From assembly GCA_000091205.1 (NCBI GenBank), contig AP006487.2: a stretch of 64,000 nt of DNA; one strand, 5' to 3'. The notes under the pieces are model-generated. The model was not told the DNA's origin. It was given only the letters and a program-made list of their open reading frames with translations, and made no database searches. This stretch comes from Cyanidioschyzon merolae (Eukaryota). Within the stretch, counting starts at the first letter, position 1. Each line of letters begins with the position of its first letter. The translations under genes and the position numbers were made by a program. This document shows, in pieces, positions 8,583 through 60,950 of the stretch.

Positions 8583-9122
8583 AAGCTGTCCGGTCGAGAT
8601 ACGCTCTATTGAAAGAATCGGATCGCTGGAGTTTCTGAAGGAGCCGCGCACCCGCGCCCATCAATGGAGCTCAACCAGCTACCGCGACGTACTGGAGGTG
8701 CCGCGAGCCTTCGCTTCGGCGAGAATACACGCTTCATCATGAAACTGAGACGAGATCATCGTTATCCGGGCTCATTCAAGGCGCGAAATTTCGCAAGTCC
8801 GCTGCTTGGGATTTTCCGCAACGAGAGCGCATTGTCGCTCGTGGAGGCACTCGCATGGCCGCAGCGGAACCTAGCGCGAACCCGTTGCAACCGGACATCT
8901 AAATTGTCCAGCTAGGGGAAACTTTGTTTCAAGGTTGATGAAGCTTGAAGAACCGAAGAAGACACGATGCTGAGACCCCGAATATCCTGCTGTTTTCGAC
9001 CATGCAGCGGAGCCCGGATAGGGTCATCGGCGCTTCTTGCTAATCTTTTGGCAACCACTGATGCCATGCACTGAAAGCGAATGCCAATTGTGGTTCAACG
9101 CTACGCCAATGTGTCAGATTAA

Positions 9123-10262
9123 CATGGAACACTGAACTGCATGATCTGTGGCTGCATTTCGATTTTTTACGAAGCTTTTTAAGATGTCTAGCCTCGATAT
9201 CCGGAGTGCAGTGATGCGGGCTCACGGTTCCATGCATAGATTCAGGATTCTCGGTAGTGTTTTCGGAGTGACTCCCTCCGCTCTTTGAAGCTGGAATTCG
9301 GTACTTTATCGGAATTAAGATGATTCGTGACGCCATCGATCAGCGGTTCATAGAATAACAGATGCCAATATCGAGTCTATACGTACGAGCGTCCACGCTT
9401 CCCCTTTCGTTACGTGTAGCGTGCCCAGGTCACGCATGCTTCAAGTCTTCGATCGCTCGGTTTCACGGCAACTCATGGGCGCAGCGATCCGTGCCGTTCA
9501 ACAGACGATGTGGAAGATTCGCCTTAGTCAGTTGACGACCTGTTCAGAAGCTCATGCCGGGAGTTCCCTGGACTTTTCGCACCAAATGATGAAAGGACTG
9601 TTCGGAAAACGAATCCTATGCTCTCTGTGGATATCCACGCAGAGGCATCCCATTGCAGCACGATACCTCCCGCATGATACGCTCCATGCGGCTCCACAGT
9701 CTTCCGTCTACATCGGAAGGGGTCTTGGAGTCGGGCTCGAGCCATTGCTGCGATCGTTTCGAATAGTGCATATGTCACCGGAGTGCACTAGCGGAGCGTT
9801 GAAGGATAGAAACTTCTCGTCCTCTTCTCTGTCCTGGATTCTCCTAGTGGTACTTGTTTCATCATGGTCGACATCGCGTTCCACAAAGACTCGATCGAAC
9901 GTGACGCAGAGCGCTTTCGAGTGCAGCGTCCAGACTGCTCGCTGAGGGCATCGACCCAAAGAAACCCGTGATCATCGGATACGACACGAGGCGCAGAAAC
10001 AAAGCATGGCATCAAGGCGAGCCACCTGTACCCGGACTGGGCATGTACCGAGCGTTACAGCAAGTGCTCAAGCGCCGCAGTAAAGTCCCCATAGGAGGAG
10101 TCTGGGTATTATTTCGTAACACTTGACCGCAGCCAAGTGTTACCGGCGCGAAGGGCTCGCCGCAGCTGTGGAGAAGTAAGATGAGCATGGCAAGCGAACC
10201 GTTGATCGCCCTTGCATCTTTGCACGGAATACGTCGATGACAGCCTGAGGCAGTGAAATCGG
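9123..10262 (-). mobile_element. Copy A of a 1.14 kb dispersed repeat, forming an inverted-repeat pair with 19126..20265
   Basis: ORFs 9421..9945(+), 9524..9778(-), 9788..10015(-) and 9040..9336(-) are essentially identical at the protein level to ORFs in 19372..20389 on the opposite strand. Boundaries were mapped to the points where nucleotide similarity ends: ...cagtgaaatcg at 10251-10261 and ...ttccatttta. Confidence 0.75.
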
Positions 10263-10488
10263 GACTCAGACGCCGCCACCAACAGTGCTCAACTCCAAAC
10301 CATGGAGCTGGCTGGAGAGAAGCGAACTAGGTATTAAAAGCCATCGATAAGACAAAGGAGAAGCAAGCATTTGTAGAAAAATTCCGCAGAGCTGGTTTTG
10401 ATGACTATGGTAAGAGACGCAAACTTAAGTTTATACTCTCGACTGATGCAAAAACCTGCGTTTTATTCTGAAAGGGGCATGCTCCTCG

Positions 10489-15148: not shown

Positions 15149-15247
15149 GGTTGACTTGGAAAACTATCAGGTTCCGGGTAGTCGCTTCGCGCACGGCAGT
15201 GGCAAACGCTCGTCTGCGATTTGCGAGCTCTGCAGACTCGTTTTGAC

Positions 15248-18751: not shown

Positions 18752-19125
18752 GATCAAATGTCCAGCGGCCACTGGCATCCTGTACGCCAAGATCAACCCG
18801 AACTCCGCCCGCGCAATTCATGCTATAAAGTGTTCGCACGCCGCGTCATGATCGATATGTACAATATCTGGCATAATGGTGCAGGGGCATCTCGCCTCCG
18901 TGTCCTTTTACACTGTTGTCCAACCAACATGGAAACAGCACCTAAGACGGCATACATACCAAATTTTGCGTCTCTTTCCACAGTCATCAACACCAGCCTT
19001 TGCGGGCCTGTACGAGAGGCCGTTTCCTATTCCGATCTCTTTTATCCGCTTTAAATACGCCGTCTCTGTTTTGGTATTGCTGCATTGCCAGCAGTGAAAG
19101 TGGGTTCGCGGCGTCGCGAAAGCCT

Positions 19126-20265
19126 CGATTTCACTGCCTCAGGCTGTCATCGACGTATTCCGTGCAAAGATGCAAGGGCGATCAACGGTTCGCTTGCCAT
19201 GCTCATCTTACTTCTCCACAGTTGCGGCGAGCCCTTCGCGCCGGTAACACTTGGCTGCGGTCAAGTGTTACGAAATAATACCCAGACTCCTCCTATGGGG
19301 ACTTTACTGCGGCGCTTGAGCACTTGCTGTAACGCTCGGTACATGCCCAGTCCGGGTACAGGTGGCTCGCCTTGATGCCATGCTTTGTTTCTGCGCCTCG
19401 TGTCGTATCCGATGATCACGGGTTTCTTTGGGTCGATGCCCTCAGCGAGCAGTCTGGACGCTGCACACGAAAGCGCTCTGCGTCACGTTCGATCGAGTCT
19501 TTGTGGAACGCGATGTCGACCATGATGAAACAAGTACCACTAGGAGAATCCAGGACAGAGAAGAGGACGAGAAGTTTCTATCCTTCAACGCTCCGCTAGT
19601 GCACTCCGGTGACATATGCACTATTCGAAACGATCGCAGCAATGGCTCGAGCCCGACTCCAAGACCCCTTCCGATGTAGACGGAAGACTGTGGAGCCGCA
19701 TGGAGCGTATCATGCGGGAGGTATCGTGCTGCAATGGGATGCCTCTGCGTGGATATCCACAGAGAGCATAGGATTCGTTTTCCGAACAGTCCTTTCATTA
19801 TTTGGTGCGAAAAGTCCAGGGAACTCCCGGCATGAGCTTCTGAACAGGTCGTCAACTGACTAAGGCGAATCTTCCACATCGTCTGTTGAACGGCACGGAT
19901 CGCTGCGCCCATGAGTTGCCGTGAAACCGAGCGATCGAAGACTTGAAGCATGCGTGACCTGGGCACGCTACACGTAACGAAAGGGGAAGCGTGGACGCTC
20001 GTACGTATAGACTCGATATTGGCATCTGTTATTCTATGAACCGCTGATCGATGGCGTCACGAATCATCTTAATTCCGATAAAGTACCGAATTCCAGCTTC
20101 AAAGAGCGGAGGGAGTCACTCCGAAAACACTACCGAGAATCCTGAATCTATGCATGGAACCGTGAGCCCGCATCACTGCACTCCGGATATCGAGGCTAGA
20201 CATCTTAAAAAGCTTCGTAAAAAATCGAAATGCAGCCACAGATCATGCAGTTCAGTGTTCCATTT
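19126..20265 (+). mobile_element. Copy B of the 1.14 kb dispersed repeat, the inverted partner of 9123..10262
   Basis: ORFs 19372..19599, 19428..19679, 19442..19966, 19609..19863 and 20051..20389 duplicate those of copy A on the opposite strand with only 1-3 aa differences. The right end is ...gcagttcagtgttccatttta at about 20265. Confidence 0.75.
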
Positions 20266-21091
20266 TAATCTAGCGTGGGTGGACGCAACCTTAGCTTGCA
20301 CTGTTGCAGCGCGAAGACAGGTCACTATGCGCTCGCTTGTCCGTTCATTCCAGCAGCAATCATGCAGTTCGGGCGTTGCATACTTTTGAGAGATAACAGT
20401 ATTTTTACTATTCGGCGAGGATCGGGCAGCGATCAAAGGATAAATCGACCCGCAACGCATGGTATTACATAATCAAAGAATGCAGTAAGAAACTGTTCAG
20501 CGGCAAGCGTCCACATGCTCCCGACTGCAAGATCCAGCATCGTGCGTTCCCGGTTATCCGCAAAAGCAGCTGCCGCATGATTCCCAGCGCGCCTCATGTT
20601 GGTGACGATGCAAACGTAGCGTACGCGCTCAAAACGCTCGAGACGCTCATGGACGCGGCCGAGCTGCGACCCTTGTCCCGTTGGACAGTATAAGTTTAAG
20701 CAACTCACAGGAACAAGATTATTTCGCGGATTACGGAAGGTGCCAAGGCGATACAGCTGCACACCAGGTATCACTATCTCGAACAGATTCACGTATTCTG
20801 TTCGATGAGTATTCAAACGGCCTGCATGCCTTCGAGCTGCGTCGTGCGTGGCCGCATCTAGCCATGTTTTGGGCTACAGATGTTCTGGATCGCCACAAAA
20901 CAATAGATGACAGGCGGAAGATTGCCACGAGAAAATGATACTGTTCAAATTCTGGGGCAATTCCATTCGGCGCGTCCCGTAGACACTTTCTGATAATCCA
21001 ATCCCACAGATGTCCACAGAGCACGGTTTGCTGTGATAGATTCGAACGGTTTGGACGACTGCCGAAGAAATCCTTCCTGGGCAACTTTGCA

Positions 21092-22783: not shown

Positions 22784-23159
22784 CTTTTCGAAAGGCACAA
22801 ATTATCTTCCTCCCCGAGGTGCAGCCGCACCGTCCATCACCAGGACGTACACACTCTCACCAGTGAACTCGGATTGAATGGTCCAGAGGATTGGCGGCGG
22901 ATGGCGGCCGCCGCACGGCTACTTCGCCGCGGCAGTCCGCCGCCGCACATGCTTGGAGTCGCTCGCGCGCCATGGCCGAATCGCATTCAGCTGAACTCTG
23001 TTCCTCTCCTTTTTAGAGAAGGAAATTGAAATCGATATGCAATGCATCCTATGGATCGGAGACGAATTGCCCCTAGGATGTATGTTTCACCGAATAGTGC
23101 AGGGATGATTGTATTTCTCTTTCAGGGCAATCATAATATAATTATCAGGTAGTTAAGGA

Positions 23160-24500
23160 ACACTGGAAGAAAGAAAAAGATGCGCTGCCCGCCAAAAACC
23201 GATATTCTCAAACCGTGTTTGTGGGCAATGGTAGAAAAGGACCCGTTGAGCACTTTACGGAAAGCAAAGAGCGACGATAGTTGCCACCACGGGCGTCTCT
23301 GTTTCCCAACAGCTTGTTCGCTTGGTCCTGAAACCCCTAGGATACAGTCGCGAAAAAAGAGTCCTGGTTCACGCACGGCCATCTTCCATCTAAATCGCAA
23401 TAACAGCGTTCCTGAAACTCGGGGATCGGTATGCAGTACAGAGACGTTGATTTGTATTTTCAGTCGATGAGACTTGCCTCGGACCAAACGTTGGTACATA
23501 TTTGAGTATTCGCGGAGAGGGAGCCCGTTGTATGTACGATCGCTCTCGACGAGAACGAGGGCATCATCTATTCTAGCTGCGGTGGATTCATTTGGCGGCC
23601 GCCGTTTTGCTGGCACAGAGGGCTCGCACAACAGGACCAACCACTTTGTCCAACCATTGAAGACTCTTCCCTGCCGTCTGGCGACGTTCCCCTATCGGAA
23701 ATCGTGGGGTATAACCATTCCCCTGGGGTTCGAGTTTTCGAAGAATCTTTCGGGGTAGAGCTGTTTTTCATTCCTCCACACGCTCCAGGGTTGAAGCCCA
23801 TCTATGGAGTGTTTTCTATCGTGAAACGTTATGATCGCCTCACCGAGCGCATCGCTGCAGCTTTCTGTACACGGTGATACAGCGGCACATTCCGTCCTTC
23901 TTCTGCAAGTGCCTCTCACTCCGGAAAGATCCTCATCTAAGCGAATAAAGGAGAACGTTCATTTGATGAAATAAAAAATCCGAGGGAAAGGTACGGTCAT
24001 ATAAGTCAAGGATCCTGGAGGTACATGTCGTCGGCTGACAAAAGAAAATGAAAAATCCTCTTCTCGCCGACCATCGAGCGAAGAAGAAGAGGGGAGATAG
24101 ACCAGGAAAGGTGTTTGCCCTGCGGGACAAAAACTAGACTGTAGGGTCACTGACGGCACGAGTTCTAGGACTCCCTGAACAGCTAAATCCCATCAAAAGC
24201 AACAAATGCATATCGTTCTTGAACGGAGACTTCAACGACGCCATCAATATCAGACGATGTGCAGTGCTGAATACGAGGCCTGCGGAGCTGACTCGACCGA
24301 ATGTTCTGGGGCAACCTCTCAGGCTCGAAGTCTACAGAGAGAAGCTGAAGCCGATGGCAGGGCGCCTTTCGGGAAAGGCTGTGAGGCGTCTGCGAGTGGG
24401 TTACATAAATAGAAATATATGCTCTATAGTAGCGAACGGTTTTCCGTTTTGCTCTATATATAGGTTCGATTTGAAACACATTCTCAGCAGGGCGTAGCCT
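23160..24500 (+). mobile_element. Internally deleted, non-autonomous derivative of the Fanzor/TnpB-like element. It retains the C-terminal region including the RuvC-III motif
   Basis: The plus-strand frames show three blocks: KKKMRCPPKTDILKPCLWAMVEKDPLSTL (23180..23470), YSRRGSPLYVRSLS...AAVDSFGG (23474..23758) and GDFNDAINIRRCAV...LKPMAGRLS (24219..24497, TTG start). Together these are homologous to 51904..53010(-) and to the RuvC-III/C-terminus of 12843..15148(-). The RuvC-I and RuvC-II segments are absent. Confidence 0.5.
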
Positions 24501-28167: not shown

Positions 28168-30390
28168 CTCTGAGTACCTGGCTTCGTGAAGGCGAGCTAG
28201 ATCTCACTAAAAATGATTCAGATGCAAATATTCTGGCCAGGCGCGGAGGTTCGAGTTTCGACTCTGGAACCATCGACAGCCGCCAACGAATCCTGCTTCT
28301 AAAGTGCTACGTTCACACCCAGTTCGCAGTCAGCGTGTAACAGCCCGCCTCCGATAATTCGGTCGTAAAAACTAATGTTTGGGAATGCTCCCGCTGTCGA
28401 AAAAATCAGCCTTTGCGGTCCTTTTCTCCAAGGGCTGCCTTTTCCTCTCTCGTAGCCGCAGCTTTAAATATTTCGGTCTCCCGTGACCCTCCAGCTCCCG
28501 TTTCAGAACTCTAGAAATGTTGATGGCGGCGTTAAAATCCCGTGTTCGCAGCTTCTGGTAGTTGTCGTCGCGTTTGGTGCACAGGCGGATGTTGCGATCT
28601 ACGCCTCGCTTGCCTTTTTTTCATCTTTGTGTACGGCCAAGGAGCGTCCTCTGCAGCGGTGGCACCTGGCTTTTGTACGGTGTTCCTATATGTGCAACGC
28701 GCCTTCCCCAATGAGGTTCACACTGTAGCCTGTGAACGCTCGCTTCAGCGCTCGATCCATGCCCTAGACGGTCGCAGAGCGATCCTGTCGATACATCCAT
28801 CGATTTTAGAGCCCGCTGTCGTATCCCGCTATCATGGAAGTCTTGTACGTGAGCCACTTAGCGAGTACTCTCCGTTCTGCAGACGCAACCGCATGGCGTT
28901 CCATTCGGTAGAGCATTTGCGGAGCGCGATATTGCTGATGATGAAACAAAAATCGGAAAGAAAATCATGGATAGAGAACAAGTCAGGAAGTGTTTATCCG
29001 TCAATGCTCCATTCGCGCAAAGCGGTGACGTACACTCGACTACAAGCGATCGCAATGATGAATCAAGTCCGAGTCCAAGAAAATTCTCCATGTAAGAAGA
29101 GGAGTCGGGAGCCTTTGAGAGCATATCCCGCCAGAGATATCTCGCTGCTGCCGAACGCGGTTTCTTCGATGTCTGCAAAGATTGGAGAATTTGCTTTTCA
29201 AACTGAAGGGATTAACTGTGTTGAGAAATTCAGCGTAGTTTCAGCATGAGTTCGTGAAAAAGTTGCCAAAGGGCGACGTCGATATTTATTTATCGCCGAT
29301 CCACTGGCGCGAATTTGTACGGCCACAAGTAGACTTACAACAGGGAGATCGAGTACTTGAAGAATGCATGGTTTCAGCATTCTAAACAGGAAAAAAGGGG
29401 AAGAACGGAGGCTTCTGCGTATGAACTGGTAAATGATATAGGTAATTTGACGTAATCATGTTCATCGGCGTCGTTATTCAACTTAAAGACAGTGACGTAA
29501 CAAATTCCGGCTCCAAAATGTCGAAAAGGTCACTCCCTAAAGACGACCGAGAATCCTAAAACGAAGCGTGAATCTGTAAGCTTTTGCTGCCGCACTTCAA
29601 ATGCCGACGCTGCACGCCTAACAAAGTTCCATTAAAATCCAAAGATGGTAACAGAGCTAGCGGTTCAGTGCCCCATATTAATCTTTTGCGGATGCAGAGG
29701 CTGCGGTGCGGAGTCGGCCATAGGTAGCTCGCAGCCGCTTTCGCGACATATCCGTATATGGGCCTCGTCGCTGCAATTTCCGGCGCCATGCAGGAGGATA
29801 TCTGCGTTTGCGTGCGGTTCGACGACACTTTGTCTTCGACTGAGGGTCTGGGCCTGTGTCTCGAGCAGGTAAGCAGTGTGGACTCCAGCAAATGGAGTCA
29901 GGGACATCATGGATGTTCCGAGGTCCATGCATCTCATTCGGAAATTCATGTCCGGAGCCGGCTGCCGTAATAGGCATATGCCGCAATGATGATTTCCTCT
30001 GACTTGGCTATCGAAAGATGTCTCGGGGCATCGAAATTCTACAGAGTCCGTCTAGAGTATCTATTTCTGTGCGTGGAGACACAACAGCACGAATAGGCAA
30101 TGCTATGATATTGTGGCTCTTATCACACGAGCGAGCAAGATGATGCGAATCATGTGCGATCATTGCGAGTCCACTTTCCAGTGGCGAAGAAAGAGCCAGA
30201 GCGAAGGCAACTTATGCCGTTTGTTGAACCGCGAGAGGTAAGACGGTTCCCGGGCACGGAGGCGAGCTGATCGTGTTGTAACCGCCCCAGCTAAACTTCC
30301 ATCAAGAAACCTTTCCCGCAAACTTCACGACAAGTAAACTCGTAGCTCGTCCATGTACCTAGAAAGGAGACTTCTCTGGTTAGGAGCGCT

Positions 30391-35351: not shown

Positions 35352-35763
35352 TCTGCCCGCTTACTGGGAAGTTGCGAGTACCTTGTCGTCTGTCGAGCGC
35401 AGCGCTGGTCCAATCACAGAGCCACTACGCGCTGAGCGTGCGGCGCGGTGCGCTCTTGCCACACCGGGCGTTTCGACGGCTAGTGTGGCGGTGCCGGCGC
35501 AACTGCCGTTCATCTGGTCGCACTAGAGGACGGGAGCACTACAGCTCGCGGTCTCATGGGGCGCTCGTCGCCAAATGCACAGACACAGCAACCGAACATT
35601 TGCTGACTCGTCCGAAGCTCGATTCCTGACCAACTGGATCGCCATGAGTTTCTGGAACGGAGAGGTGTACCTCGTGTAGCGGCGGTATCCTTGTAGGATA
35701 ACCACAGAAGCGCTAGTCCCGTTTGTCGACTCTGTTTCGATGTACCGTTTTCATATATCACAG

Positions 35764-37036
35764 TTAGAATAAAATGGAATGGGCCCACTTACCTTATTCT
35801 GGCGTGTAATCAAACTCTCTTGGTCTCTTCCAGTTGTGATCAACAACGGACTTTTCGGAGCCTCCTCAGCAACTGCTTCCTTTTCGTACCTCTTATCTCT
35901 TCCATTGAAAACACCAGCATCTCGTTTCCTCAAGCTCCGCTATTCACTGGCAAAGGGTGACGACGGCAGCGTGAGCGTCCTCATTTCGCAGCCTCCAGTT
36001 GTTTTCCCGTGCATTTCATGCGCAGGCGGTAGTTGCCATCTCCGCACCCCTAGCCATGAGCATCTTCTTCTCATACTGCCACGATGTGCCCTGTGCAGCG
36101 ATGGCGCTCGGCAGGGGTCGCATGACCCTGTGCGCTCACCCCACCCCTCTTTCGAGGATCGTCCTGTAGCGCGTGAAGGCTTCTTCCATCGTTCGTCACG
36201 TGTCCTTGACATGTAAACAGGGTTCCATGCGATGTCTTTCTCCGTTACAACGCGCCCGGCGCCGTTCCCGAATATCACGAGCTTCTTCTGGACGATCCTC
36301 ACCGCAAACACACCGTACGCACACACGTAGGAGTACGCTGTTCCGTTCGGTGGAGGATTTGTGGAGCGCTTCGTAGTTCACGGTGAAACAAGCACCAGAA
36401 GTCAAAAGCAGTCTGCAGAGCAAGTGGAGATATTTCGAGCCGTCTGCGCTCCCTTCGAGCAATGGAGTGACGCACTCTTTATCAGAGGCGATCGCTGCGA
36501 TGACTCGAGTCCGAGTCCAGGGCCATATCCCATCCTGGCAGAAGAGACGGGATCTTCCAGGGGCACGTCCCGTAAAGCATACCATGCCGCTGTAGAATGC
36601 CGTCTCGTCGGTGGCCGCAAAGAGACGGGGATCTGTCTCGCGGGTGGAATCGAAGATTAACTGGTATGAGAAATTCTGTGTTCTCGCAGAAGAAGCTTGT
36701 GATGGAGTCGCTATGCGGTGACGTCGAGGTTGTTTCTCGTAATCGATCCAGTGGCGCAGCGCGCTGCGTTCTCGAGTTGCACTGGGACAGATAAATCGAA
36801 CGTCTGCTGGCTGCTTGCATTCAGCCTGATACACGTAGGAGAGAGAGAAGAGCAGGGCATCGACGTGTGAATGGACAATAATATAGGTTGCTTTACGAAC
36901 GGTATTCGCGGGCGTTGCGTTCCATCTTGATACCGGTGAACTAGGGAAGAAAGCGGAAAGGCGTCGAAGGTGACACTCCGAATAAACTACCGAGAACTCC
37001 AGAATTAGATGTATATCTGTAAGCACTTTCTGTAGT
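35764..37036 (-). mobile_element. Copy 1 of a ~1.36 kb repeat family, called R1 here. It is slightly truncated at one end relative to copy 3
   Basis: The 353 aa ORF 36196..37257 is identical to ORFs 40595..41512 and 46783..47700 from residue ~73 onward (EVLQKVLTDIHLILEFSVVYSECHL...). Antisense ORFs 35779..36216, 35940..36326, 36361..36660 and 36383..36595 are also duplicated. The end is TTAGAATAAAATGGAATGGG at 35764. Confidence 0.75.
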
Positions 37037-39201
37037 ACTTCGAGTTTAGAGTCTTTGCATCCTAAACAAATTCTAAAAGAATCGAAAAGCTGGAACACAG
37101 CAGACAGTTCACTGTTTGATATCCTTATCTGACATGGGTATGAAATCAGAGGGAGGGCGACTGCCAGTGATGACGTTCTTGTTGTTTGCCAGCAACGCAT
37201 ATCCGTGCGGGGTACGGTGTAACGCAAGTCCAAGTTCTTGTGAAATTTATGATGCAAAACGCCAGCCGATCTGAGTTTTCAGGGTTTCAGTGTGTCCGCC
37301 ATGGTTTGTAAAGCTGTATCGATGGATGCATACCAAATGAGCCGTAAATCACGTGCGTGAAGAACTGGAGCATGCCGACAGTCTGGGCCGGGCGCTCCAG
37401 GCATTCTTGCACGGACGTTTTGGACGAATTCCAACCGCTGCTTTGTTGATGTTGACTATTCGTTGTTTTAAGGAGTCTCGTAATCGTCTTTTGGTATCGC
37501 GGCTGAACGCTCAGAGGTGCACTCTAGTATAGTGATCGGTCTTGCGAATGAAAGCCGCTGCGCGTTACGCGCAAAAACCATTAACTGGCGAGCAAATGCG
37601 CTCTAACAGCGGTCTCAAGTGCGATGCCTCGTATTCAATGGTAGCGACTAGGCACCCGAAGCAAATCTACAGTCTCGAAAGGGACATACGACAACCAGAC
37701 TTTGAGTCGTAGAACACGCGAGATATTCGATCGGCTTCTGAACGTTTCTGGGCAGGGGGCTCGCCAGTTCCTTAAGAGAACTGCTAGCATGCGGCGTATT
37801 CCGTGGAAATAACGGCCCTCGTTATCGGGGCGCCATTGATGCTTCAACTTGCAATCGAATAGAAGATATCTGTCCTGCTGTACACACACAGGCCAGCGAC
37901 CATTTATTTGAAATATGAATCCCTGCACTTCACGCTCCTTCGTCACTCGCGCGATTTTGTCTGCACCCTATCACAGGGTTTTCACATTCGAAATGTAGGC
38001 TAGCCCCATCTGGGTGCCACTCGGGCGCTTATTCATCTCTGAATCAACCCCTGACTTTCTTCGACTTCTTGCACTGTGGAGAGCTCATGCACGGACATCG
38101 GTGGGGCACTGGTGCAGAACCACTATATGAATTCCGGCTTCTCAGCATACAGACTCTGGCCAGCATCTCGTATGCGCTGCCTGACCATATTTTCAACGAA
38201 GGCAACGCGATCGCTGTGCATTGACGTTCAGAATCCAGGACCTCACTGGCGACGCTTATGCTCGCAACTACCGCGCTGCTGCTAAGCCTCCTGCGCAAGC
38301 ATAGTATCGACCTCAATGCCGCAGTCGCTACGTCACCAGTCCGTGCCGGTAGCGGCCTGACGCGCGTTGCTCGCCACCGCCAAACCTCTCCGTCAAGCAA
38401 TTTGGCCCTTTTCTGATACGGAGCTTGTTTAGCGCTTCCACGGGGACAGGGCGCGATCGTACAGCCAGAGCGTGTACTCTTCCAGGGACAACTGCGCCCC
38501 CTCTTTCCAAACTGCAGTGTGCTTTTCTGACCATCTCATGCGTCTCCTATCGAATCTGCTCTTTCATCTCATCATCAAGAAAATTCGCGGTCAAAGTCAC
38601 CGGAAAAAGAGAAAACTCGCACTGGAGCTACCGCTCCATATCCTAGTTCGGTTGCAATACAAGAGTAGAGGAACCTCGAGATATTTTCCTAAGCGGCGCG
38701 CGTTCCCTGCCACCACTGGCTGCAAGGCGGAGATTCTGGGGGCCTCGAGTTGCGTGGCGCGCGGGTGTGGCAACTGGTGGTTTACGTCTCCGTTAAGCGC
38801 TTATCTGACATAGCACTGCGTCGTGCTTCCCTTGTGTGTTCCTGGCGCGTGGAACAACGAACAGGGGACCAGCATAATGATTCAGGGAAAGAATTAGACG
38901 GAATTAGGACGACACTCAGGGAGGCACCCGCTGGTGCTTCGTTCAAGAGGCTTTGACACCTTTGAACGTTCAGAAGGCAGCTAGAACACTCCAGGCGCAA
39001 CCAGCATTGCTACCGCCTCGGGCGGCTGCGCCCCTTGTGTTGTGTGCTCTTAGTGAAGGTGCCTTTTTAGCTGGGCATCTGCTTTCCAAGATTGGCTTTC
39101 CTGACGGAAAACGCTGGCAGTGAAGGCTGAGGGAGCGTTTTCCTACGTGATTTGACACACAAACAGGTATACTATTGTTCACGCACAGTCTATACTCAAA
39201 T

Positions 39202-40497: not shown

Positions 40498-40586
40498 CAT
40501 TGATGTATTCTCTGACCATTGCGAATATAACCATGCTAGCCTCCTGATCAAGCAACAGTCATTCTGTACACTCAAGTCAAATTAAA

Positions 40587-41885
40587 ATGGAACAGTGAAC
40601 TGCTCGCTTTCATCTTGCCATTCGATCCTTTTTCTGGAACTTTTGACATTGACCAACTCGGCGTTCGAAGTGCTACAGAAAGTGCTTACAGATATACATC
40701 TAATTCTGGAGTTCTCGGTAGTATATTCGGAGTGTCACCTTCGACGCCTTTCCGCTTTCTTCCCTAGTTCACCGGTATCAAGATGGAACGCAACGCCCGC
40801 GAATACCGTTCGTAAAGCAACCTATATTATTGTCCATTCACACGTCGATGCCCTGCTCTTCTCTCTCTCCTACGTGTATCAGGCTGAATGCAAGCAGCCA
40901 GCAGACGTTCGATTTATCTGTCCCAGTGCAACTCGAGAACGCAGCGCGCTGCGCCACTGGATCGATTACGAGAAACAACCTCGACGTCACCGCATAGCGA
41001 CTCCATCACACGCTTCTTCTGCGAGAACACAGAATTTCTCATACCAGTTAATCTTCGATTCCACCCGCGAGACAGATCCCCGTCTCTTTGCGGCCACCGA
41101 CGAGACGGCATTCTACAGCGGCATGGTATGCTTTACGGGACGTGCCCCTGGAAGATCCCGTCTCTTCTGCCAGGATGGGATATGGCCCTGGACTCGGACT
41201 CGAGTCATCGCAGCGATCGCCTCTGATAAAGAGTGCGTCACTCCATTGCTCGAAGGGAGCGCAGACGGCTCGAAATATCTCCACTTGCTCTGCAGACTGC
41301 TTTTGACTTCTGGTGCTTGTTTCACCGTGAACTACGAAGCGCTCCACAAATCCTCCACCGAACGGAACAGCGTACTCCTACGTGTGTGCGTACGGTGTGT
41401 TTGCGGTGAGGATCGTCCAGAAGAAGCTCGTGATATTCGGGAACGGCGCCGGGCGCGTTGTAACGGAGAAAGACATCGCATGGAACCCTGTTTACATGTC
41501 AAGGACACGTGACGAACGATGGAAGAAGCCTTCACGCGCTACAGGACGATCCTCGAAAGAGGGGTTGGGTGAGCGCACAGGGTCATGCGACCCCTGCCGA
41601 GCGCCATCGCTGCACAGGGCACATCGTGGCAGTATGAGAAGAAGATGCTCATGGCTAGGGGTGCGGAGATGGCAACTACCGCCTGCGCATGAAATGCACG
41701 GGAAAACAACTGGAGGCTGCGAAATGAGGACGCTCACGCTGCCGTCGTCACCCTTTGCCAGTGAATAGCGGAGCTTGAGGAAACGAGATGCTGGTGTTTT
41801 CAATGGAAGAGATAAGAGGTACGAAAAGGAAGCAGTTGCTGAGGAGGCTCCGAAAAGTCCGTTGTTGATCACAACTGGAAGAGAC
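40587..41885 (+). mobile_element. Copy 2 of the ~1.36 kb R1 repeat. It carries an intact 305 aa ORF and lacks the terminal ~58 bp at its right end
   Basis: It starts ...AAATGGAACAGTGAACTGCTCGC at 40587, an end shared exactly with copy 3 at 47707. ORF 40595..41512 is 305 aa with only 1-2 aa differences from copies 1 and 3. Similarity to the other copies stops after ...ggaagagac at about 41885. Confidence 0.75.
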
Positions 41886-41967
41886 AAAAACAGAAAAAAG
41901 TAGGCCAAGTAAGGTCTATTGAGCTGCTCGATTTTATTTCGACGTGGGCGTGGTGCGTGCGCACGAG

Positions 41968-42816: not shown

Positions 42817-45800
42817 TTCTCAATAGCAAGCGCTCGGACTGCCGTCTATACCATTATTCTAATAGACGATTTCCAAAAACAAGTGGCAGCCACTTTGGAG
42901 CAGCCGCTCTCTATTTAGTACTATCGAGTAGACGATTAACAGTATTCTCCCCTGGTCGGCAATAACATTGTTCCTCGTGCACATTTGTCGCGCTTCTGCC
43001 TCGCTGGGTTGCCGACTATACCGTGGCAGTGCCTCGTTCTTTGAGGGCACCAGATCCAGTATCTTTCGGCCAGTGACTTCCTTTCGTCAGAAGTATTACG
43101 CTATTCTGCACGATTCCATCGCTGAATAAGAAACGATCCGCTCGAAATTTAGCTTAAAATAGAGCCGCTGAACTCTTCGGAAGCATGAGACATTTCTGTA
43201 TGTTAATTAAGGCATTTATGTCTGGATGATGAAAATGCTTGAGCGCATAGTTGCCGGTGGAATCACACCATAGCGAGCCTCCTAAATTCGAGTGCCCTGT
43301 TATCTGAAGATCGGCCAGCCTTCTGTACTGCATAGAGTGCATGCGGCTCTGTTGCAGTATCTGCTCTACTTGTTCTATGTGCATTTGTATTATTAATACG
43401 CACATATCGCACTGAATGCATCGATAAGGATGCTACAGCATCGATTCTTGCACTGGTTGCACGCTCTCGTCGAAAGGACGGGAGCTCGGCGTTTGCACGC
43501 TGAAGCACGTCCAGCGCCAAGGGCTACCACCGAACGACACGATCCGTAGCTTGTTCTCTTTTACGACTTTTTTTCAACAAGTTGCAAACGCATGCTTCTT
43601 CCCTCCGTCTATCCGAGACTCTCGTAAATTCAACGATATATCATGAACGCCTGCTAAGGATCGTCCGCATGATCCATTTTGACGGTCATGCACATCGTGC
43701 ATGAAACTGTACAAAGCATGTTCCTCGCTTCCATACGGCGCCTAGATATTTGAGAATGAGGTCATGACACAGTCGATCCACTTCTTCGGATTTATTTCCG
43801 CATTCAACACGCCCTGCTGTCGATCATACCAAGCTCTGTAAAAGCTGGGCAGCTTCACCTTCTTTCCGTTCTGATCTTTGGCTCCGTCCTGTTTGTTATG
43901 AGGTTCGTGCACGTGACGTTGTTTATTGAACAAGGATCCACACTCACAGAAAAATCTTCCTCTTCGTCCACCTTGAAAGCTTGAGTACCTGTCTCGCTGC
44001 ATGATTCAGGCCTAAGTTTCAAAAGGCACGTGCCGATTGATATCCCGCCGGTCTCCGCCTCCTGTGTGCGACATTCCATTGCCTCATTGTAAAAGAGAAC
44101 GCCTTAAATAACTCCGCAAATGCTGTTTGAGCATTCTTACGATTGCTTCATCCTCGCTGGCAGAGATTAGCCGAGGCTCACCGGGCGGGCCATAGGCTAC
44201 AGAGGACAAGCGTCTACCGTGACATAAAGGCCCTTGGTCTAAGAAAATCGGGAGCAAATCGAATAGAAGTTTGAGAGGGATAGGGCGCTCGCCGACAGGG
44301 CGCAAGTCTGCTGTCTTGCGCGCTGGAGGGCTGTGATTAGGAAAGCGTTCCAGCCCAAGATGCAAGACAAGCTGCTATCAGGTCTCAACTAGCCTTTGGA
44401 TACGAGACAATCGGTCCGAGGCCCAGAGCAGCTTAATATGCTTGGACTCTCCAAAGCGACTCATCCTCTCTGTTCGAGATCTCTGCCGAAGCCGCCGCCA
44501 GCTCGTCATTTGCCCCTTGCCAATGCCACAAGAATCCTTTCTGTGAGTCATTATCTCTCTGGTAAAGTAAGTTCAGCGTTCGTCGCTCAGAAGGTGCGTC
44601 TCCTGGTGCGCTCCGCTTTGATCCGTTTATGCATTGGAGATTGGATTGACAATTATTGGCAACCGTGCTGTAGATTCTCTTGATCCCAGACACCGTGACG
44701 TAGCAATGTATTCCGGGAACGGAATGTGCGTATTTCTGATCGTAACAGCGGGGCGTGTTGCACATCGTGTCCAGAGCACCAGTTCTGTTGTCGCTCGAAA
44801 GTTTAATCGATAATTTCTGAAGCACACTGGAGAGCTGGCATCCCAGCGTCCGGGAATCCTACGAAAAGTTGTTGCACGATGTGCGTCAAGGTAAGAGAGG
44901 CTGTGCAAGCCTTCACAGAGTAGAAGCAATGCGATGCTTAATGGAGTCTTGCATCTCACATTTCGTAAGATTCTTTGGTTTATATGGTTTTCTAGGGAGA
45001 TCCCGGCAAATGAATCAGAACCTTTTTTACAGCTCGTAGATTTTTGCGTTTGCGTCCCTCTCCATCCTCTTTTCGAAAGAATCATGCTCTTCTCGGTCGA
45101 GTTCTTTCTTCCCCTTTCTTTTCTTGGGCATTCAAACGCATTGATCGGAAGGAGACACTGAAGCTTAAGTTTTCTATGTGTGCGATTGCTGTGCCTTGAA
45201 TACATTTTATTCACCTTCTCCGTCGCGAGAATGCCCATGGACCGAAGAGCGACTTTCTGCTCTCTACTGCATACGAGCGGATAGGCAACGAAACTGGTAA
45301 GGACTGGAAACAGCAGAAAATACTTGTCATGAGCGGCGTCACCTGTACGAACTATACTTCTATTGGTCCGGAGGCGTAAAATTGACGCTGAACAACGGGA
45401 AAGTCGCATTCGATTCGACTTTACCCAGGAGGACACGGTGGCATGATGATCAGCTCAACGCCACTCTCAGCTGAGCAGTCCTTGACAGATTTGTGTGATG
45501 GAAAGCGATGTCGTCTAATACCAGGAAAGGAGAATGTGGCAAGGAGAAGCCACAAGGAGAACTTCGATGAAGGATGAGATGTCGATCGATCCCATCCGTT
45601 TGACACTTTATAGGGGACCGCGCGAGTAAATCGTAGCAAGGGCTGGCGTTATCGACATTCTCGCTTTCCTCCTCTACACAAACAGTGTTCCGTCCGTGTT
45701 TGAAGGTCCATTTGAACGTCTACTATTTCCACTGAATAATTTCTCATCCAAAGAGGTGAGCACCCGTGCGTCCTGTGGCAAGCGTTCAAGTTCCAGGATG

Positions 45801-46350
45801 GAACCAATAAAGCGTTGTTCAACGCGCAACGGTCTCCCATGGGAGCTCGTCAGTTTCTTTGTCCTACCAGTTCCACTCTTCACTATTTTTGTTATACGTA
45901 CGAACTTTTTAAATTCTGTTGCTTGTTTGGTGGTATTTATCAACGAAAGTATGGAGCGCAATGAATAGACAACGAGGAATTCGTGTAAATAGAGTTTAAT
46001 TAGTACTGGTTTGAGTATATTATGCACAAAATAGAGAAAACGAGCAGGGCAGTCCAGCCACCTGCTGACGGTTGCGTAACGGAATTCTACAAATAAGACA
46101 GTCACATTCAGTACAGAGAAGTGACTGCGCACTGTCCTTCTGCAACCGTTCTTAAATCTTAAGGCATCATTCTAATATTAAATACCCACGAGAAATTCAT
46201 ACAAATGCAAAAAGGCCTGCTGGTAATCGCAATTCAGAATTCGCTTTCCTGAGAATAATTGCCACTAAGGTTGACAGCAGTGCGCTTCCTGGACAGAAGT
46301 TCGTCAGGCAGGCATATTGGTCACCAGCAAGCGTTTCGACCAAACCATTA

Positions 46351-47707
46351 TTAGAATAAAATGGAATGGGTCCACTTACCTTATTCTGGCATGTAATCAA
46401 ACTCTCTTGGTCTCTTCCAGTTGTGATCAACAACGGACTTTTCGGAGCCTCCTCAGCAACTGCTTCCTTTTCGTACCTCTTATCTCTTCCATTGAAAACA
46501 CCAGCATCTCGTTTCCTCAAGCTCCGCTATTCACTGGCAAAGGGTGACGACGGCAGCGTGAGCGTCCTCATTTCGCAGCCTCCAGTTGTTTTCCCGTGCA
46601 TTTCATGCGCAGGCGGTAGTTGCCATCTCCGCACCCCTAGCCATGAGCATCTTCTTCTCATACTGCCACGATGTGCCCTGTGCAGCGATGGCGCTCGGCA
46701 GGGGTCGCATGACCCTGTGCGCTCACCCCACCCCTCTTTCGAGGATCGTCCTGTAGCGCGTGAAGGCTTCTTCCATCGTTCGTCACGTGTCCTTGACATG
46801 TAAACAGGGTTCCATGCGATGTCTTTCTCCGTTACAACGCGCCCGGCGCCGTTCCCGAATATCACGAGCTTCTTCTGGACGATCCTCACCGCAAACACAC
46901 CGTACGCACACACGTAGGAGTACGCTGTTCCGTTCGGTGGAGGATTTGTGGAGCGCTTCGTAGTTCACGGTGAAACAAGCACCAGAAGTCAAAAGCAGTC
47001 TGCAGAGCAAGTGGAGATATTTCGAGCCGTCTGCGCTCCCTTCGAGCAATGGAGTGACGCACTCTTTATCAGAGGCGATCGCTGCGATGACTCGAGTCCG
47101 AGTCCAGGGCCATATCCCATCCTGGCAGAAGAGACGGGATCTTCCAGGGGCACGTCCCGTAAAGCATACCATGCCGCTGTAGAATGCCGTCTCGTCGGTG
47201 GCCGCAAAGAGACGGGGATCTGTCTCGCGGGTGGAATCGAAGATTAACTGGTATGAGAAATTCTGTGTTCTCGCAGAAGAAGCTTGTGATGGAGTCGCTA
47301 TGCGGTGACGTCGAGGTTGTTTCTCGTAATCGATCCAGTGGCGCAGCGCGCTGCGTTCTCGAGTTGCACTGGGACAGAAAAATCGAACGTCTGCTGGCTG
47401 CTTGCATTCAGCCTGATACACGTAGGAGAGAGAGAAGAGCAGGGCATCGACGTGTGAATGGACAATAATATAGGTTGCTTTACGAACGGTATTCGCGGGC
47501 GTTGCGTTCCATCTTGATACCGGTGAACTAGGGAAGAAAGCGGAAAGGCGTCGAAGGTGACACTCCGAATAAACTACCGAGAACTCCAGAATTAGATGTA
47601 TATCTGTAAGCACTTTCTGTAGCACTTCGAACGCCGAGTTGGTCAATGTCAAAAGTTCCAGAAAAAGGATCGAATGGCAAGATGAAAGCGAGCAGTTCAC
47701 TGTTCCA
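46351..47707 (-). mobile_element. Copy 3 of the ~1.36 kb R1 repeat, taken as the apparently full-length reference copy
   Basis: The plus strand begins TTAGAATAAAATGGAATGGG (46351) and ends ...GAGCAGTTCACTGTTCCATTT (47707). These termini form an imperfect inverted repeat, TAAAATGGAA / TTCCATTTTA. ORF 46783..47700 (305 aa) and the antisense ORFs are identical to those in copies 1 and 2. Confidence 0.75.
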
Positions 47708-50574
47708 TTTCATTCTGACAAGGATTTGGGGCTGTTGGAGAAATATTCGCGAGTGCCACATCAACGGATAGGCATCGGGGTTCACCGCGTGGGAAACGTT
47801 TTCCTGGGACTCCCGAGCGTATACGTGCGGACAGAGCTAGTTTAAGCGTTCTGCTCGGCTGCTCAGTTAGTATGGTTTAACATGAACAAGCACGAGCCTG
47901 CATTATTGTGAGGTTCGACCGTGCAGGGTTACGCTGCCGCACTTGGCCCAAACCCCTCCATATTAAAGTGGCACTCAAACAGCACATGAAGTTACTGTGA
48001 GAGTCCTCAATCTTACGATTCAGAATCCAAAATGACTTGGCAGTAACCAGTAGAACGCTGGCGAGGGATTTAGCAGCTTCAAAGAAACTTAGTCGTCGAG
48101 ACGAGGTGCAGCATCACGGAGCCTGCGAACGGAGCTTTGAAGGATCACACAATATCTATGTTCGCGGGATCCTTAATTTTGCAGCGTAGGTTCTTGACGT
48201 GCTAGACGGAGCATCTGAGGGATATGCCCTCAGATACGAAACAGAGTGCGTTTACCGAGCGACGGCTCTGCCGCTTGAGCAGTGCGACCGGTCCACGAAG
48301 CACCCGGGCTTTATGATTGTAACAGGTATAATACGTTTACCAGAAGCGCATCTTTTTGTCTGCACTATTCAGAGACTTTACTTGTGCTGCCAACACTATT
48401 CTTGCAGTGCCGGGCACGAAAGGTTAGTACAATGAAGCGTGCTGTGGAACGCAGCACAGTAGTGCGCAGTAAAAGAGCATATCTTACCGCAACGCACATG
48501 TGCGTGTGTAGCGCCGTCAGGTCCATCATTAACAAAAACTACTCACTAACTACCAACTAGATACCGAATTCGTTCCCCATCTACTGTAAGCGTTGAGAGG
48601 GGGAAAGCTTTCCGTATTTTCGAAAGTTTACCTTCCAGGCGGAGGATCACGCGAGAAGGACGAGTCTTCTGGGCTTGTGTTTCAAGCTCCTCCCAATGCT
48701 AGGTGATGTGGCGCGACTTGAGTGGCTCGTCCACAACGCAGTTTATTCTAGGACTAGGAGCGGGTATCCTGTGTCTGGACTTCGCCCTAGTCGCGGCGGT
48801 CTCCATGTGTATCACTTTGCACTGCCGCAGGCAGTAGGTCTCTCTGTACAGCTTGCGGGCTTCCAGAATGGTAATGAATCCCGATTCCGTTTCGAGTGGA
48901 CCACGCCTCGAGCCGATGCCCTTAACGGTATGGCAAAGCAGTTCTGTTTCTATGTTGCATCCGCACCTGCGCTATAGCCGCTAAGGCGGGTGCTCACGGC
49001 ATGCTCGGCGCACGATAGAACAACGAAACGACCAGTACATGCGAGAGGAATTATGGGTAATGGAACTTGAAGGTAAGGCGCATCATGGTGGACGCTTTCC
49101 CGAAAGCCAACATGGATCCCACAATAAGCGATCCATGATCAATGTAAACCTTTTGTAAAACAAAAACTGAATGGAGCGTGAAAGAGAGCGCTTCGAACGT
49201 TTGGCCTTTACGAGCGGTTCATTGTCGGGTAGACTCTGCTGATGCCGCATGCGGGCGAACTTTGGTTGATAATCCGAACTAGTTATTTCGCCTGAAAGAA
49301 GTCTATTGCGAGAGTGCATATTCACGAGATCCTCTCGCTCAGAGTCTGTGAACACACAAGCAATCAGTTCCGAGGGAATAGTAACTTCACGTGAAACTCG
49401 ATCCCAGCCGATGGCCTTTTCGATTTGCGCGCAAGAGAGTGGAATCCCATACACTGATGCTAGCGACAAGCTTTTGACCGATACCACTGCCTTGTTTACG
49501 AGTAAGCGGCTGTGAACAATGCATAGCATCGATATTTGAATCCTATTGCAAGCTGATTTCGAAGACGCTTGGCGGCAACGCGGTTCCTGTGGATCCCGCA
49601 ACGCGCTATGCCCTGCGGTCGGTAATCAATCATGCGCTACGCTTAGGCAGGTGGGAGAATTTGCAGATTCTAGTGGGGGTTTTCGCTTTCATTATTCCTT
49701 TTCAAACGACTAATTGGGAAATCGCATGCTTCAGCACCTGAATTTGCACCAACTCTGCCCTTGGGCCTCGTTCCACAAGGACGTCCCGCATCGTAACTGG
49801 TGATTTGTTGACCTGTCATCGCGGAGCAAGCGCGAGCTTCCGTTGATCCTCTCGGACGCAATACTCCAAAGGAATCGATTTTCCCACATAAATCCATACA
49901 GGCTACAAATGGAAGAGGCAGCAGCGGCTAGCGTCGCGAAACGCCTGGCCGCAAATGGGATCCTCTCTGTGCGACCCGGAGCAACTGCAGTGCCTGGCCT
50001 ACATATCGCTATGTATCTGACCGACTTGGACGATTGCGTGTCTTCATCGTCGACCCCGAACATAATCCTCAACAAAAAGGATCCACGGCACCGCTTCAAG
50101 AACGCTTCTCATGCCTTTAAGTTTGCACGCTTTCTGGATCCGACACGAGGCAGCATCTCGTTTCGAGCGCAGTGTGTGCATGCAACTACGGGAACTTGTC
50201 CATATTGCACGAAGTGTACAGTGGACAGATGCAACACGCTCTGGCACTAGAGCTGCCGCATCTAAAACGGCGCTGCGCCATTTATGCAGAATTTACGAAA
50301 GCGTAGCATCTCTGTTCGAGATGCATTCTCGAGCCCTTTCGTCCTTCTGATTTTTAACAGGGTATTGGTGTGTAAACATGTGAGGGTTGCATATTCTTGA
50401 CCATGCCATCAAATGAGTCTTCTCGGGTCTCCGTGTTGTTAAAGCAACAGAGGAAGCGACGCTGCTGCAGCGCTCCCATCCTCACGGGTGGCTGCAGTGG
50501 GGCCCAGACATGAAATGATCTGTAGCAATATCCATGATTCTTGATGGCTTCCAAGATATAACCACGCTGGATAC

Positions 50575-60149: not shown

Positions 60150-60950
60150 GCTGTGTATGATGGAACAAGTTCCTACAGAAACATCTCGGCTGGAGAGCAG
60201 CTCGAGAAAATTCGGTCCGTCTTCGCTGCCCTCCTGCGTAGCGGCGACGCACTCTCCGTGGGAATCGATAGCTGCAATGCCTGAAGTCGGAGTCCAAGAT
60301 CATTATCCATGGATACAGAGACGACGCGAGCCTCTGCATCCATGTTCTGTTCGAGGGATCATGCTGCCATCGATTACCTCTTCGTCAATGGCCGCAAGGA
60401 GAGGAAATTTTGCCTCCCGAGAGAAAAAGAGATCATCTGAAGTGACGTTTTCAGTGAACTTCCGACATAGGATTGTGAAGAAGGCCTTTGGGGCTATTGT
60501 CGAGCATGATTCCTCTTCAATCCAGCGGCGCACGCTGCGGCGCCCGGGAGTCGCCTTGGAACAGAAAGATCGAAAACTTGAAGACCGCATGATTCGCGCA
60601 TGCCACAAGTGAGGAAAACAGAATCGTGGATGCTTGAAAGTACAAATCGGGTAACTGTATCGGAAGCTTTACGAGCCATTAGTCGAAGGTGCTACGAATC
60701 ACCTTGATTCCTGTGACATACCGAAATCCAGAGGCAGAGCGCCGATGGAGCGCCTCCGAGCCTACGACCAAGAATCCTACGAATACGTATGAATCCGTGC
60801 CCCCTCATTGCTGGCCGTCGAATGTCGGGGCTATTCACTTACCAAAATTTTGGGAAAACGATCAAAAGGCAGGTGCAGTGCGATTAGTATTGTGTTCCAC
60901 AGTGATATGAAACAGGTGTGGTGGAATTACGAACCATTGTTCCTGGTTCC
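60150..60950 (+). mobile_element. Older, diverged and truncated copy of the 1.14 kb inverted-repeat family
   Basis: ORF 60157..60612 (...THSPWESIAAMPEVGVQDHYPWIQRRREPLHP...) is homologous to 19609..19863 (TYALFETIAAMARARLQDPF...). ORF 60689..60910 (MLRITLIPVTYRNPEAERRWSASEPTTKNPTNTYESVPPH...) is homologous to 20051..20389 (MASRIILIPIKYRIPASKSGGSHSENTTENPESMHGTVSPH...). The order and orientation are the same. Nucleotide identity is roughly 70%. Confidence 0.5.

Follow-up and report, generated by a model that had tools for sequence, protein, structure and literature searches.

Tc/mariner-type elements that carry Fanzor1 were described in Pythium ultimum (PUl-1, PUl-2 and PUl-4), together with PGv-1 (Bao & Jurka 2013, PMC3627910). 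In the PUl-type layout, a Mariner-like DDE transposase gene is followed by Fanzor1 in the same orientation, with terminal inverted repeats (TIRs) of 24-33 bp and TA duplications (PMC3627910). In Cyanidioschyzon merolae, a red alga, 26 class I elements and 8 class II elements "related to bacterial transposases" were reported, as was a ~3.2 kb interspersed repeat, in 253 copies, that contains a WSV486-like open reading frame (ORF) (Nozaki et al. 2007, PMC1955436). Later work identified the WSV486-related repeat as CMe-1A, a Fanzor1 element that was published as unclassified and without inverted repeats or transposase; at other places in the genome, some of its copies are reported to retain an intact Fanzor ORF (PMC3627910). 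No link between Tc1/mariner and Fanzor was found for C. merolae in the searchable literature. Here we analysed a 64-kb stretch of C. merolae 10D chromosome 5 (the window), which encodes a 1079-aa isoleucyl-tRNA synthetase and a 920-aa FtsH2, and the repeat family R1/IR that it contains, named after an R1 set and an inverted pair (IR) of copies. With a probability of roughly three in four, this family is a decayed, non-autonomous class II transposon of ~1.39 kb, derived by deletion from a Tc/mariner-type Fanzor1 element.

One family and its ends

Two sets of nearly identical repeats were recovered by self-BLAST and repeat finding. The R1 set (n=3) lay at 35764-37043, 40576-41893 (inverted) and 46351-47719 with 99.4-99.7% identity, and the IR set at 9116-10261 and 19126-20271 with 99.65% identity. 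Sensitive BLAST joined R1 to the IR pair and to two other copies, at 60.1-60.9 kb and 28.4-29.7 kb, giving seven window copies: three R1, two IR, one at 28316-29694 (C28) and a partial one at 60.0-60.9 kb (C60). An earlier note on this DNA had counted six, with C28 unlisted. In a multiple alignment the window copies were colinear along 1.2-1.39 kb at 55-68% identity. The earlier note had described the similarity as a ~100 bp core and a ~150 bp terminus, and both were present: in BLASTN, R1 and IR were 65% identical across the core (36252-36519 vs 9994-9726) and 68% identical across the terminus (36966-37134 vs 9278-9112). Their extent had been understated, as the homology is colinear over the full length; identity in 50-column windows was 0.53-0.68 all along the copies and barely higher (0.67-0.68) in the reported core. 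The shared core and terminus are simply the most visible patches of this full-length homology.

Five more independent full-length copies (L001, L004, L008, L010a and L011) came from metagenome contigs, obtained through two loci fetched by ORF matches and a DNA-pattern scan of the contigs; all copies were counted in the window and in these fetched loci. The metagenome copies were 69-76% identical to the consensus over 1.2-1.4 kb. They probably come from the same organism, or a very close one, at other loci, because the same samples include contigs 99.4-99.5% identical to the window. Each copy was nearer to the consensus (69-76%) than to the other copies (about 52-60%, counted in gapped alignment columns), the pattern that a transposon family should give. 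Every window copy was intergenic, and the copies were placed at unrelated loci. R1, IR, C28, C60 and the five metagenome copies are one transposon family; the proposal that R1, the inverted pair and the diverged copy form one superfamily was borne out by the colinear alignment, by BLASTN and by the metagenome copies.

A 17-nt motif, GTYAGAWTAAAATGGAA, marked both ends of two R1 copies (R1a and R1c); in the other copies it was found at one end. Its 7 matches against 0.48 expected, together with the five independent metagenome copies, exclude chance. Both ends were shared in the 12-sequence alignment, with (T/C)A-CACCCnnG-TCAGATTAAAATGGAAC on the left and its reverse complement on the right. These TIRs are 25-28 bp long and were present in 10-11 independent ends per side among window and metagenome copies; the left consensus agreed with the reverse-complemented right consensus at 21/28 positions (15/17 in the core), a score reached by 0 of 2000 shuffles. 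The shared terminus is a true element end, as the earlier note had supposed, since independent copies at other places are bounded by it too. The subterminal hairpins of an IS200/605-like system, which the same note had suggested, gave way to TIRs with TA-like flanks. The ends of CMe-1A were also scored as candidate carriers of the family TIR and were rejected, with scores equal to those of shuffles.

Transposase part and Fanzor1 part

The anatomy of the element was read from a 12-copy consensus of 1389 nt (7 window and 5 metagenome copies). From the left TIR (CACCCnnG-TCAGATTAAAATGGAAC) it passes through a ~55 nt leader, a transposase gene, a Fanzor1 tail and ~30 nt to the right TIR. The transposase part begins at its own ATG and contains two helix-turn-helix regions at the N-terminus and the first and second catalytic Asp (IDETAF and FIMDNIAFHK); it breaks off ~13 codons past the second Asp, and the third catalytic residue is missing. 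The tail, the last ~175 codons of Fanzor1, is fused out of frame and reads VIVGYGTGRG, VVDIWEHLTIAKCHRC..(25)..CMKC and NRDFNAAINI before its stop codon, which lies ~30 nt from the right TIR on the same strand as the transposase.

The transposase was read in a majority consensus of 4 lineages, on the strand opposite to the earlier translation: LFAAIDETAF..YAPRGSRLF..SWTRTRVIAAIAS..EGSVDGSKFL..SGTCFIM.N.A.HKS. Pfam DDE_3 (gathering cut-off 28.6 bits) scored 28.5 bits on this consensus and 30.9 bits once it was trimmed. On the 12-copy consensus the score was 39 bits (E 9e-10; profile positions 3-97 of 146), with a weak HTH_33 match. Consensus sequences alone matched, and single ORFs (R1, 353 aa; C28, 235 aa) had no Pfam match. 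The peptides quoted in the earlier note, SLSEAIAAMTRVRVQGHIPSWQKRR (R1, + strand), ALFETIAAMARARLQDPFRCRRK (ORF 9524..9778, - strand) and SPWESIAAMPEVGVQDHYPWIQRRR (ORF 60157..60612, + strand), do exist; the conserved block that they were taken to form is an antisense reading of the transposase core. When the stitched consensus was compared by BLASTP with an intact 324-aa protein (P0148), 31% identity over 251 aa was observed (E 1e-32) from P0148 residue 3, the alignment opening at the N-terminal helix-turn-helix MY..R.AV.RAY...FR.LG..FGV.PST.CRWN. The catalytic spacing in P0148 is DD34E. Word-indexed protein searches with the transposase and Fanzor profiles recovered only decayed copies of the family; one of the metagenome ORFs so obtained had a precomputed DDE_3 match. 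A profile of window-encoded fragments and these ORFs, searched against 1.84 billion representative proteins, retrieved 298 proteins at E<=1e-3. They included intact relatives of 302-342 aa that had DDE_3 at 1e-23 to 1e-29, several also with HTH_33 or HTH_Tnp_Tc3_2. The comparison with the PUl-1 "Mariner" transposase gave only E 0.011 and was not used as evidence. Judged by these matches, the transposase is of the DDE_3 (IS630/Tc1-mariner) type with N-terminal helix-turn-helix regions, and the copies are derivatives of a Tc1/mariner-IS630 transposon, not functional members.

The DDE_3 profile, of 146 positions, was matched over 1-143 in the intact relatives, over 5-132 in a second transposase family of the window and over 3-97 in the R1/IR family. 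A complete catalytic triad was not found in the R1/IR copies: the third residue was absent, with a decayed SPWINGIKN in C60 only. C60 alone runs on into the transposase C-terminus at 60040-60093 (ILHTSIYSPWINGIKNIL, matching PPYSPWxNPIEN); its SPWINGIKNIL matches PWYNPIENVF, and its similarity to the other copies ends at that point. C60 is the relic of an element whose transposase gene was still complete. The claim that the elements are non-autonomous stood.

These results bear on a simpler explanation, namely that the copies are plain dead autonomous Tc1/mariner elements in which the 3' third combines a diverged C-terminus of the transposase with untranslated region and resembles Fanzor only spuriously. 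A 1.39 kb element with TIRs suits a simple Tc1-like transposon, and the intact DDE_3 relatives were located on contigs of 1.0-1.4 kb; early Fanzor signals fell under the Pfam cut-off, and the transposase frame offers a weak "PxYS..(6)..E" pattern. However, the DDE_3 match stops at 97/146 and the other copies leave C60 exactly where the true C-terminus starts. The Fanzor domain PF07282 passes its cut-off, colinear matches to two Fanzor1 proteins span the 3' part, and NRDFNAAINI is exact. We consider this explanation unlikely.

The C-terminus of TnpB and Fanzor proteins has a [TS]-x-x-CxxC..CxxC zinc ribbon followed by RD-x-NAA-x-NI. In the 3' third of the 12-copy consensus, a frame was open from inside the transposase part to the stop codon (EQRALARAADRVLAEGIASKKPVIVGYGTGRGNGGRHRGEPSVPVKGMYRAMKQAF..GGVVDIWEHLTIAKCHRCERRTEAVYKEDENGKRSVDRNYRLCMKCVDNNRKQRNRDFNAAINILRLLTTELEG..), and the sequence of this third has the C-terminal TnpB/Fanzor architecture. 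PF07282 (Cas12f1-like TNB; cut-off 26.3 bits) matched the consensus with 30.6 bits (E 3.8e-7). In BLASTP the Fanzor part was colinear with the C-terminus of PUl-1 Fanzor1 (E 2e-7) and with CMe-1 residues 539-686 (E 8e-7), and hhalign against the CMe-1 C-terminus gave E 2.8e-5. The consensus NRDFNAAINI equals the CMe-1 motif exactly, C28 reads RDFNAAINI exactly and has RTRDFNAAINISR at about 28507-28545 (- strand), and 25/29 nt match the CMe-1A consensus at the RuvC-III motif. The whole Fanzor part stays in a single frame in L004, as do all but its first 3-17 residues in L010a and L011. When CMe-1 was searched against the window copies by tblastn, C-terminal motifs only were found, with no RuvC-I or N-terminal region. 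The element thus carries the last ~175 codons of a Fanzor1 gene from a second Fanzor1 lineage. The suspected Fanzor connection proved real, through the element's own Fanzor1 tail and not through a neighbouring gene.

In TnpB/Fanzor systems the guide (omega) RNA is encoded at the Fanzor 3' end and right end of the element. The retention of the Fanzor segment to its stop codon, ~30 nt from the right TIR, falls where such an RNA is encoded, and some CMe-1A copies were reported with intact Fanzor ORFs (PMC3627910). The family might accordingly consist of guide-RNA-only elements that persist through the Fanzor 3' end and the right end, using Fanzor from other copies. The Fanzor part, however, was no better conserved than the transposase part, and no thermodynamic structure signal was seen: the 3' 285 nt of the consensus folded no better than shuffles (z = -0.43), and an Rfam scan of the window found a tRNA only. 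A Fanzor lineage that is only ~25% identical to CMe-1 makes cross-use of guides doubtful, and any internal-deletion derivative must retain both ends. This explanation is decidedly improbable.

A second repeat family in the window, at 23015-24401 (+) and 51877-53198 (-), consists of two copies 71% identical to each other. Its transposase is a complete DDE_3 remnant, from MYPIDRGRIA.. to ..FIPPHFPGFKPI.GVFSIVK; when stitched, it matched DDE_3 with 37.4 bits (profile 5-132), and its alignment to the R1/IR transposase, starting at Met1, had 28% identity (E 4e-16). Behind it stand CMe-1A nt 888-969, where the Fanzor ORF starts, and nt 2890-3084, where it ends. By this order, the second family is a Tc/mariner-type element carrying a CMe-1 Fanzor with an internal deletion, and its layout of transposase plus Fanzor supports a composite architecture for the R1/IR family. 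At another locus, a 342-aa ORF (P0044) in ENA/JGI metagenome contigs of up to 100 kb passes from a CMe-1-type Fanzor C-terminus (NKDFNAAINIIRCAVLETRPDELTR) into a transposase remnant of R1/IR type, 5'-truncated, which looks like a nested or adjacent insertion of two repeat types.

Decay, probable conversion tracts and neighbouring repeats

Stops and frameshifts were found in every copy. Among 4 independent lineages no excess of third-position substitutions was observed in any frame, so the coding strand was not identifiable by selection; long open frames lay on either strand in different copies and were uninformative. The earlier note had seen in the core a palindromic or structured DNA or RNA element and had proposed to distinguish compensatory covariation from third-position variation. 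Neither compensatory covariation nor codon periodicity was found, and the core is that of the DDE_3 catalytic domain. RNAalifold on 6 independent cores gave -2.8 kcal/mol with an unfavourable covariation term of +1.36, and a double change occurred in only 3/21 pairs. The palindromes GCGATCGC and GACTCGAGTC both occur in R1; the former was broken in C60, L001 and L004 and the latter in 4/6 lineages. In most lineages they were broken without compensation, and the family does not conserve them as features. In the transposase frame, GCGATCGC and ACTCGAGTC encode ..TRTRVIAAIAS... With neither a conserved hairpin or RNA structure nor codon periodicity, all copies are pseudogenes drifting neutrally.

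A non-coding, hairpin-based element of IS200/IS605-like or Fanzor kind would account for the short palindromes GCGATCGC and GACTCGAGTC in R1, for ORFs on both strands and for the Fanzor repeats nearby. We give it next to no credence: the palindromes were lost uncompensated in most lineages, RNAalifold was unfavourable and the 3' end did not depart from shuffles (z = -0.43). In addition, the core codes for transposase, inverted repeats form the ends, and no Y1/HuH or serine recombinase remnant was seen.

It is very unlikely, too, that the repeats are host sequence, either a small gene family in which a 305-aa R1 ORF is a real gene or segmentally duplicated regulatory or intergenic DNA. An ORF of 305-353 codons does span R1, the same ORF was called in metagenome assemblies (P0031), all copies are intergenic and the 99% identity suggests recent duplication. 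Nevertheless, the R1 ORF was not retained in the other lineages, switched between ancestral frames and had no codon periodicity, and the copies have defined TIR ends, unrelated loci and 99% blocks that end inside the elements. On the sense strand of the 12-copy consensus (nt ~260-1330), one frame is open for ~355 codons and overlaps the true transposase frame by ~500 nt, offset by one base; the antisense strand is also stop-poor. These open frames, which may reflect base composition, are the reason why the earlier peptide and the 305-aa R1 ORF look gene-like.

The copies were mapped from the consensus, by tblastn and by the TIR motif. R1a (35756..37140, -) comprises a right TIR at 35756-35780, a Fanzor remnant at 35811-36326, a transposase remnant at 36327-37060 and a degenerate left TIR at 37114-37140. 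The reported core (36360..36700, -) is the DDE_3 transposase remnant's catalytic core; in R1a the first catalytic Asp codon (ATDETAF) lies at 36607-36609 (-), and the position of the second Asp, mutated to Asn in R1 (VNYEALHKS), at 36376-36378 (-). R1b (40569..41950, +) has its left TIR at 40569-40593, transposase at 40648-41381, Fanzor at 41382-41895 and a diverged right TIR at 41926-41950. In R1c (46343..47726, -), the right TIR is at 46343-46367, Fanzor at 46398-46913, transposase at 46914-47647 and the left TIR at 47702-47726. IRa (9106..10479, +) runs from the left TIR (9106-9130) through transposase (9184-9918) and Fanzor (9919-10429) to the right TIR (10455-10479), and IRb (18911..20283, -) from the right TIR (18911-18935) through Fanzor (18959-19468) and transposase (19469-20203) to the left TIR (20257-20283). 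A tRNA-Gly(TCC) at 18681-18751 (-), 160 bp from the right end of IRb, was the sole Rfam/ARAGORN match in the window. C28 (28316..29694, -) contains a right TIR at 28316-28341, Fanzor at 28372-28884, transposase at 28885-29617 and a left TIR at 29670-29694. The partial copy C60 (60040..60918, -) retains a left TIR (60894-60918) and a transposase remnant, with no Fanzor part and no right end. An eighth, very short relic may lie at 55649-55813 (+), where tblastn weakly matched the helix-turn-helix part at the N-terminus of the family transposase (35% over 55 aa, E 6e-4).

Near-identity within R1 and IR was confined to tracts. Between R1a and R1c the tract 35764..37043 (= 46351-47630) was 99.7% identical, with about 3 differences over ~1290 columns, and the last ~90 bp of the left end were ~50-60% identical. 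Between R1b and R1c the tract 40576..41888 (= 47719-46407) was 99.4% identical, and identity was only ~50% over the ~60 bp that close the right end of R1b. The IRa-IRb tract 9116..10261 (= 20271-19126) was 99.65% identical, and the remaining ~220 bp at the right ends were 35-79% identical. The tracts link relics 4-10 kb apart in direct and inverted orientation, with a divergence of 0.2-0.4%. This mosaic identity points to ectopic gene conversion between neighbouring copies, not recent transposition, because the blocks of near-identity stop inside old, diverged elements. Recent local homogenisation gave the false appearance of two families, with R1 blocks of 1.3 kb and IR blocks of 1.15 kb; the family lengths of 1.36 kb and 1.14 kb given in the earlier note are tract lengths. 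One metagenome locus (L009, JGI contig Ga0078972_1009354) aligned to window 6918-10261 and 20271-14835 at 99.4-99.5% identity, passing from the IRa left flank through the repeat into IRb-internal sequence, the order that an inversion of the 8.8 kb separating IRa from IRb would produce. In another sample, a contig (L013) had the reference arrangement. L009 is either a repeat-mediated inversion polymorphism or an assembly chimera.

The Fanzor-like gene that the earlier note had placed 2.5 kb away (12928-15167, -) is a decayed copy of CMe-1A and belongs to a different family. This copy is frameshifted, nearly full length and 79% identical to consensus nt 787-3025, and has no TE-N2-like 5' part; it lies 2.4 kb from the IRa end, with a long ORF (10489-11781) between. 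With the 3169-bp CMe-1A consensus from the supplement of PMC3627910, BLASTN returned matches elsewhere in the window and none in the seven family copies; the two consensus sequences shared a 29-nt patch only. The possibility that the family is part of CMe-1A or TE-N2_CMe was rejected by BLASTN and tblastn with the published consensus. The TE-N2_CMe / CMe-1A 5' region (635 bp) was matched at 48531-49156 (-, 82% to the consensus) and 58119-58531 (+, 66%), and smaller CMe-1A fragments lay at 3923-4099, 17488-17618 and 5858-5917. Fanzor-like protein remnants at 371-752 (-) and 43414-43542 (-) were 34-42% identical to CMe-1 residues 525-651 and 562-604. At the sensitivity used they belonged to neither CMe-1A nor the R1/IR family, and they may be relics of further Fanzor lineages.

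Origin of the family and comparison with known elements

The explanation we favour, a deletion derivative of a Tc/mariner-type Fanzor1 element, would begin with a composite element of the PUl-1 kind, transposase plus Fanzor1, that lost an internal segment, with one break in the 3' part of the transposase gene and the other in the 3' part of Fanzor. The shortened element would then have been mobilised in trans by a related DDE transposase binding its TIRs, by cut-and-paste and probably into TA.

Several points weigh against this origin. A full-length parent (TIR, transposase, complete Fanzor, TIR) was found neither in the window nor among the fetched loci. The junction between transposase and Fanzor could be placed only to +/-20 nt, where both frames are plausible, and the consensus requires one frameshift within the transposase part, which may be an error in the consensus or have been a defect in the master copy. 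PF07282 stayed below its cut-off with the 4-copy (22.8 bits) and 9-copy (24.3 bits) consensus and passed only with 12 copies; the similarities of the Fanzor part were individually modest (24-29% identity). No PDB sequence was matched by the transposase profile, by the Fanzor profile or by the Fanzor peptide. The end flanks were TA in 11/21 cases and CA/TG, one transition from TA, in 8 more; the copies are old, and the exact end positions were picked after inspecting noisy alignments. These flanks are consistent with TA duplication and are not proof of it.

Two independent chimeric transposase-Fanzor families lie in the window, R1/IR with the tail of a second, undescribed Fanzor1 lineage and the other with CMe-1 Fanzor. 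A wider reading, possible though doubtful, is that the Fanzor1 repeats of C. merolae, reported to make up ~5% of the genome, may once have been cargo of Tc1/mariner-type (DDE_3) transposons; in its boldest form, the R1/IR derivative would have spread as a guide-RNA-only parasite of Fanzor. The dead copies would also be driving conversion still, and perhaps the 8.8 kb inversion. The classification of these Fanzor1 repeats was left open in 2013, and the two families place Fanzor1 behind a Tc1/mariner-type transposase, as in oomycetes. What had appeared as two repeat families with a palindromic core reduces to an ordinary dead non-autonomous DNA transposon. C. merolae is cited with eight class II transposons and no MITEs (miniature inverted-repeat transposable elements); seven DDE copies in 64 kb, together with the metagenome ORFs, suggest an undercount, and since seven nearly equals the genome-wide class II count of Nozaki et al., most copies seem to have been missed. 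The 99%-identical blocks with diverged ends also matter for dating insertions by repeat identity in this alga, whose genome is known for nearly intron-free genes.

The family was also compared with MITEs (under about 800 bp, non-coding), and this class was rejected, as the element is 1.39 kb long and consists almost entirely of transposase and Fanzor coding remnants. Remnants of DDE_3/IS630 type would give weak BLASTX matches of the sort described for the class II elements of Nozaki et al. (PMC1955436); those elements were given without coordinates, family or structure. With IS200/IS605, the family shares a remnant of the TnpB family (Fanzor) on the 3' side, but it has no subterminal hairpins and carries TIRs and a DDE transposase instead of Y1. 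CMe-1A and TE-N2_CMe come from the same genome and contain Fanzor1-derived sequence with an identical NRDFNAAINI; in contrast to CMe-1A, which is reported to have neither, the R1/IR family has TIRs and a transposase, and the Fanzor parts are only ~25% identical. The motifs IDETAF, YAPRGSR, VIAAIAS and FIMDNIAFHKS, the paired helix-turn-helix and the TIRs are those of IS630/Tc1/mariner (DD34E) elements, although the R1/IR family lacks the third catalytic residue and every copy is inactive. In comparison with PUl-1, the R1/IR element is 1.39 kb long without the transposase C-terminus and the first ~three quarters of Fanzor, its copies are all decayed, its host is a red alga and the transposase similarity is weak. 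The R1/IR family has the same gene order and orientation as PUl-1, TIRs of 25-28 bp, TA-like flanks and a colinear Fanzor1 C-terminus.

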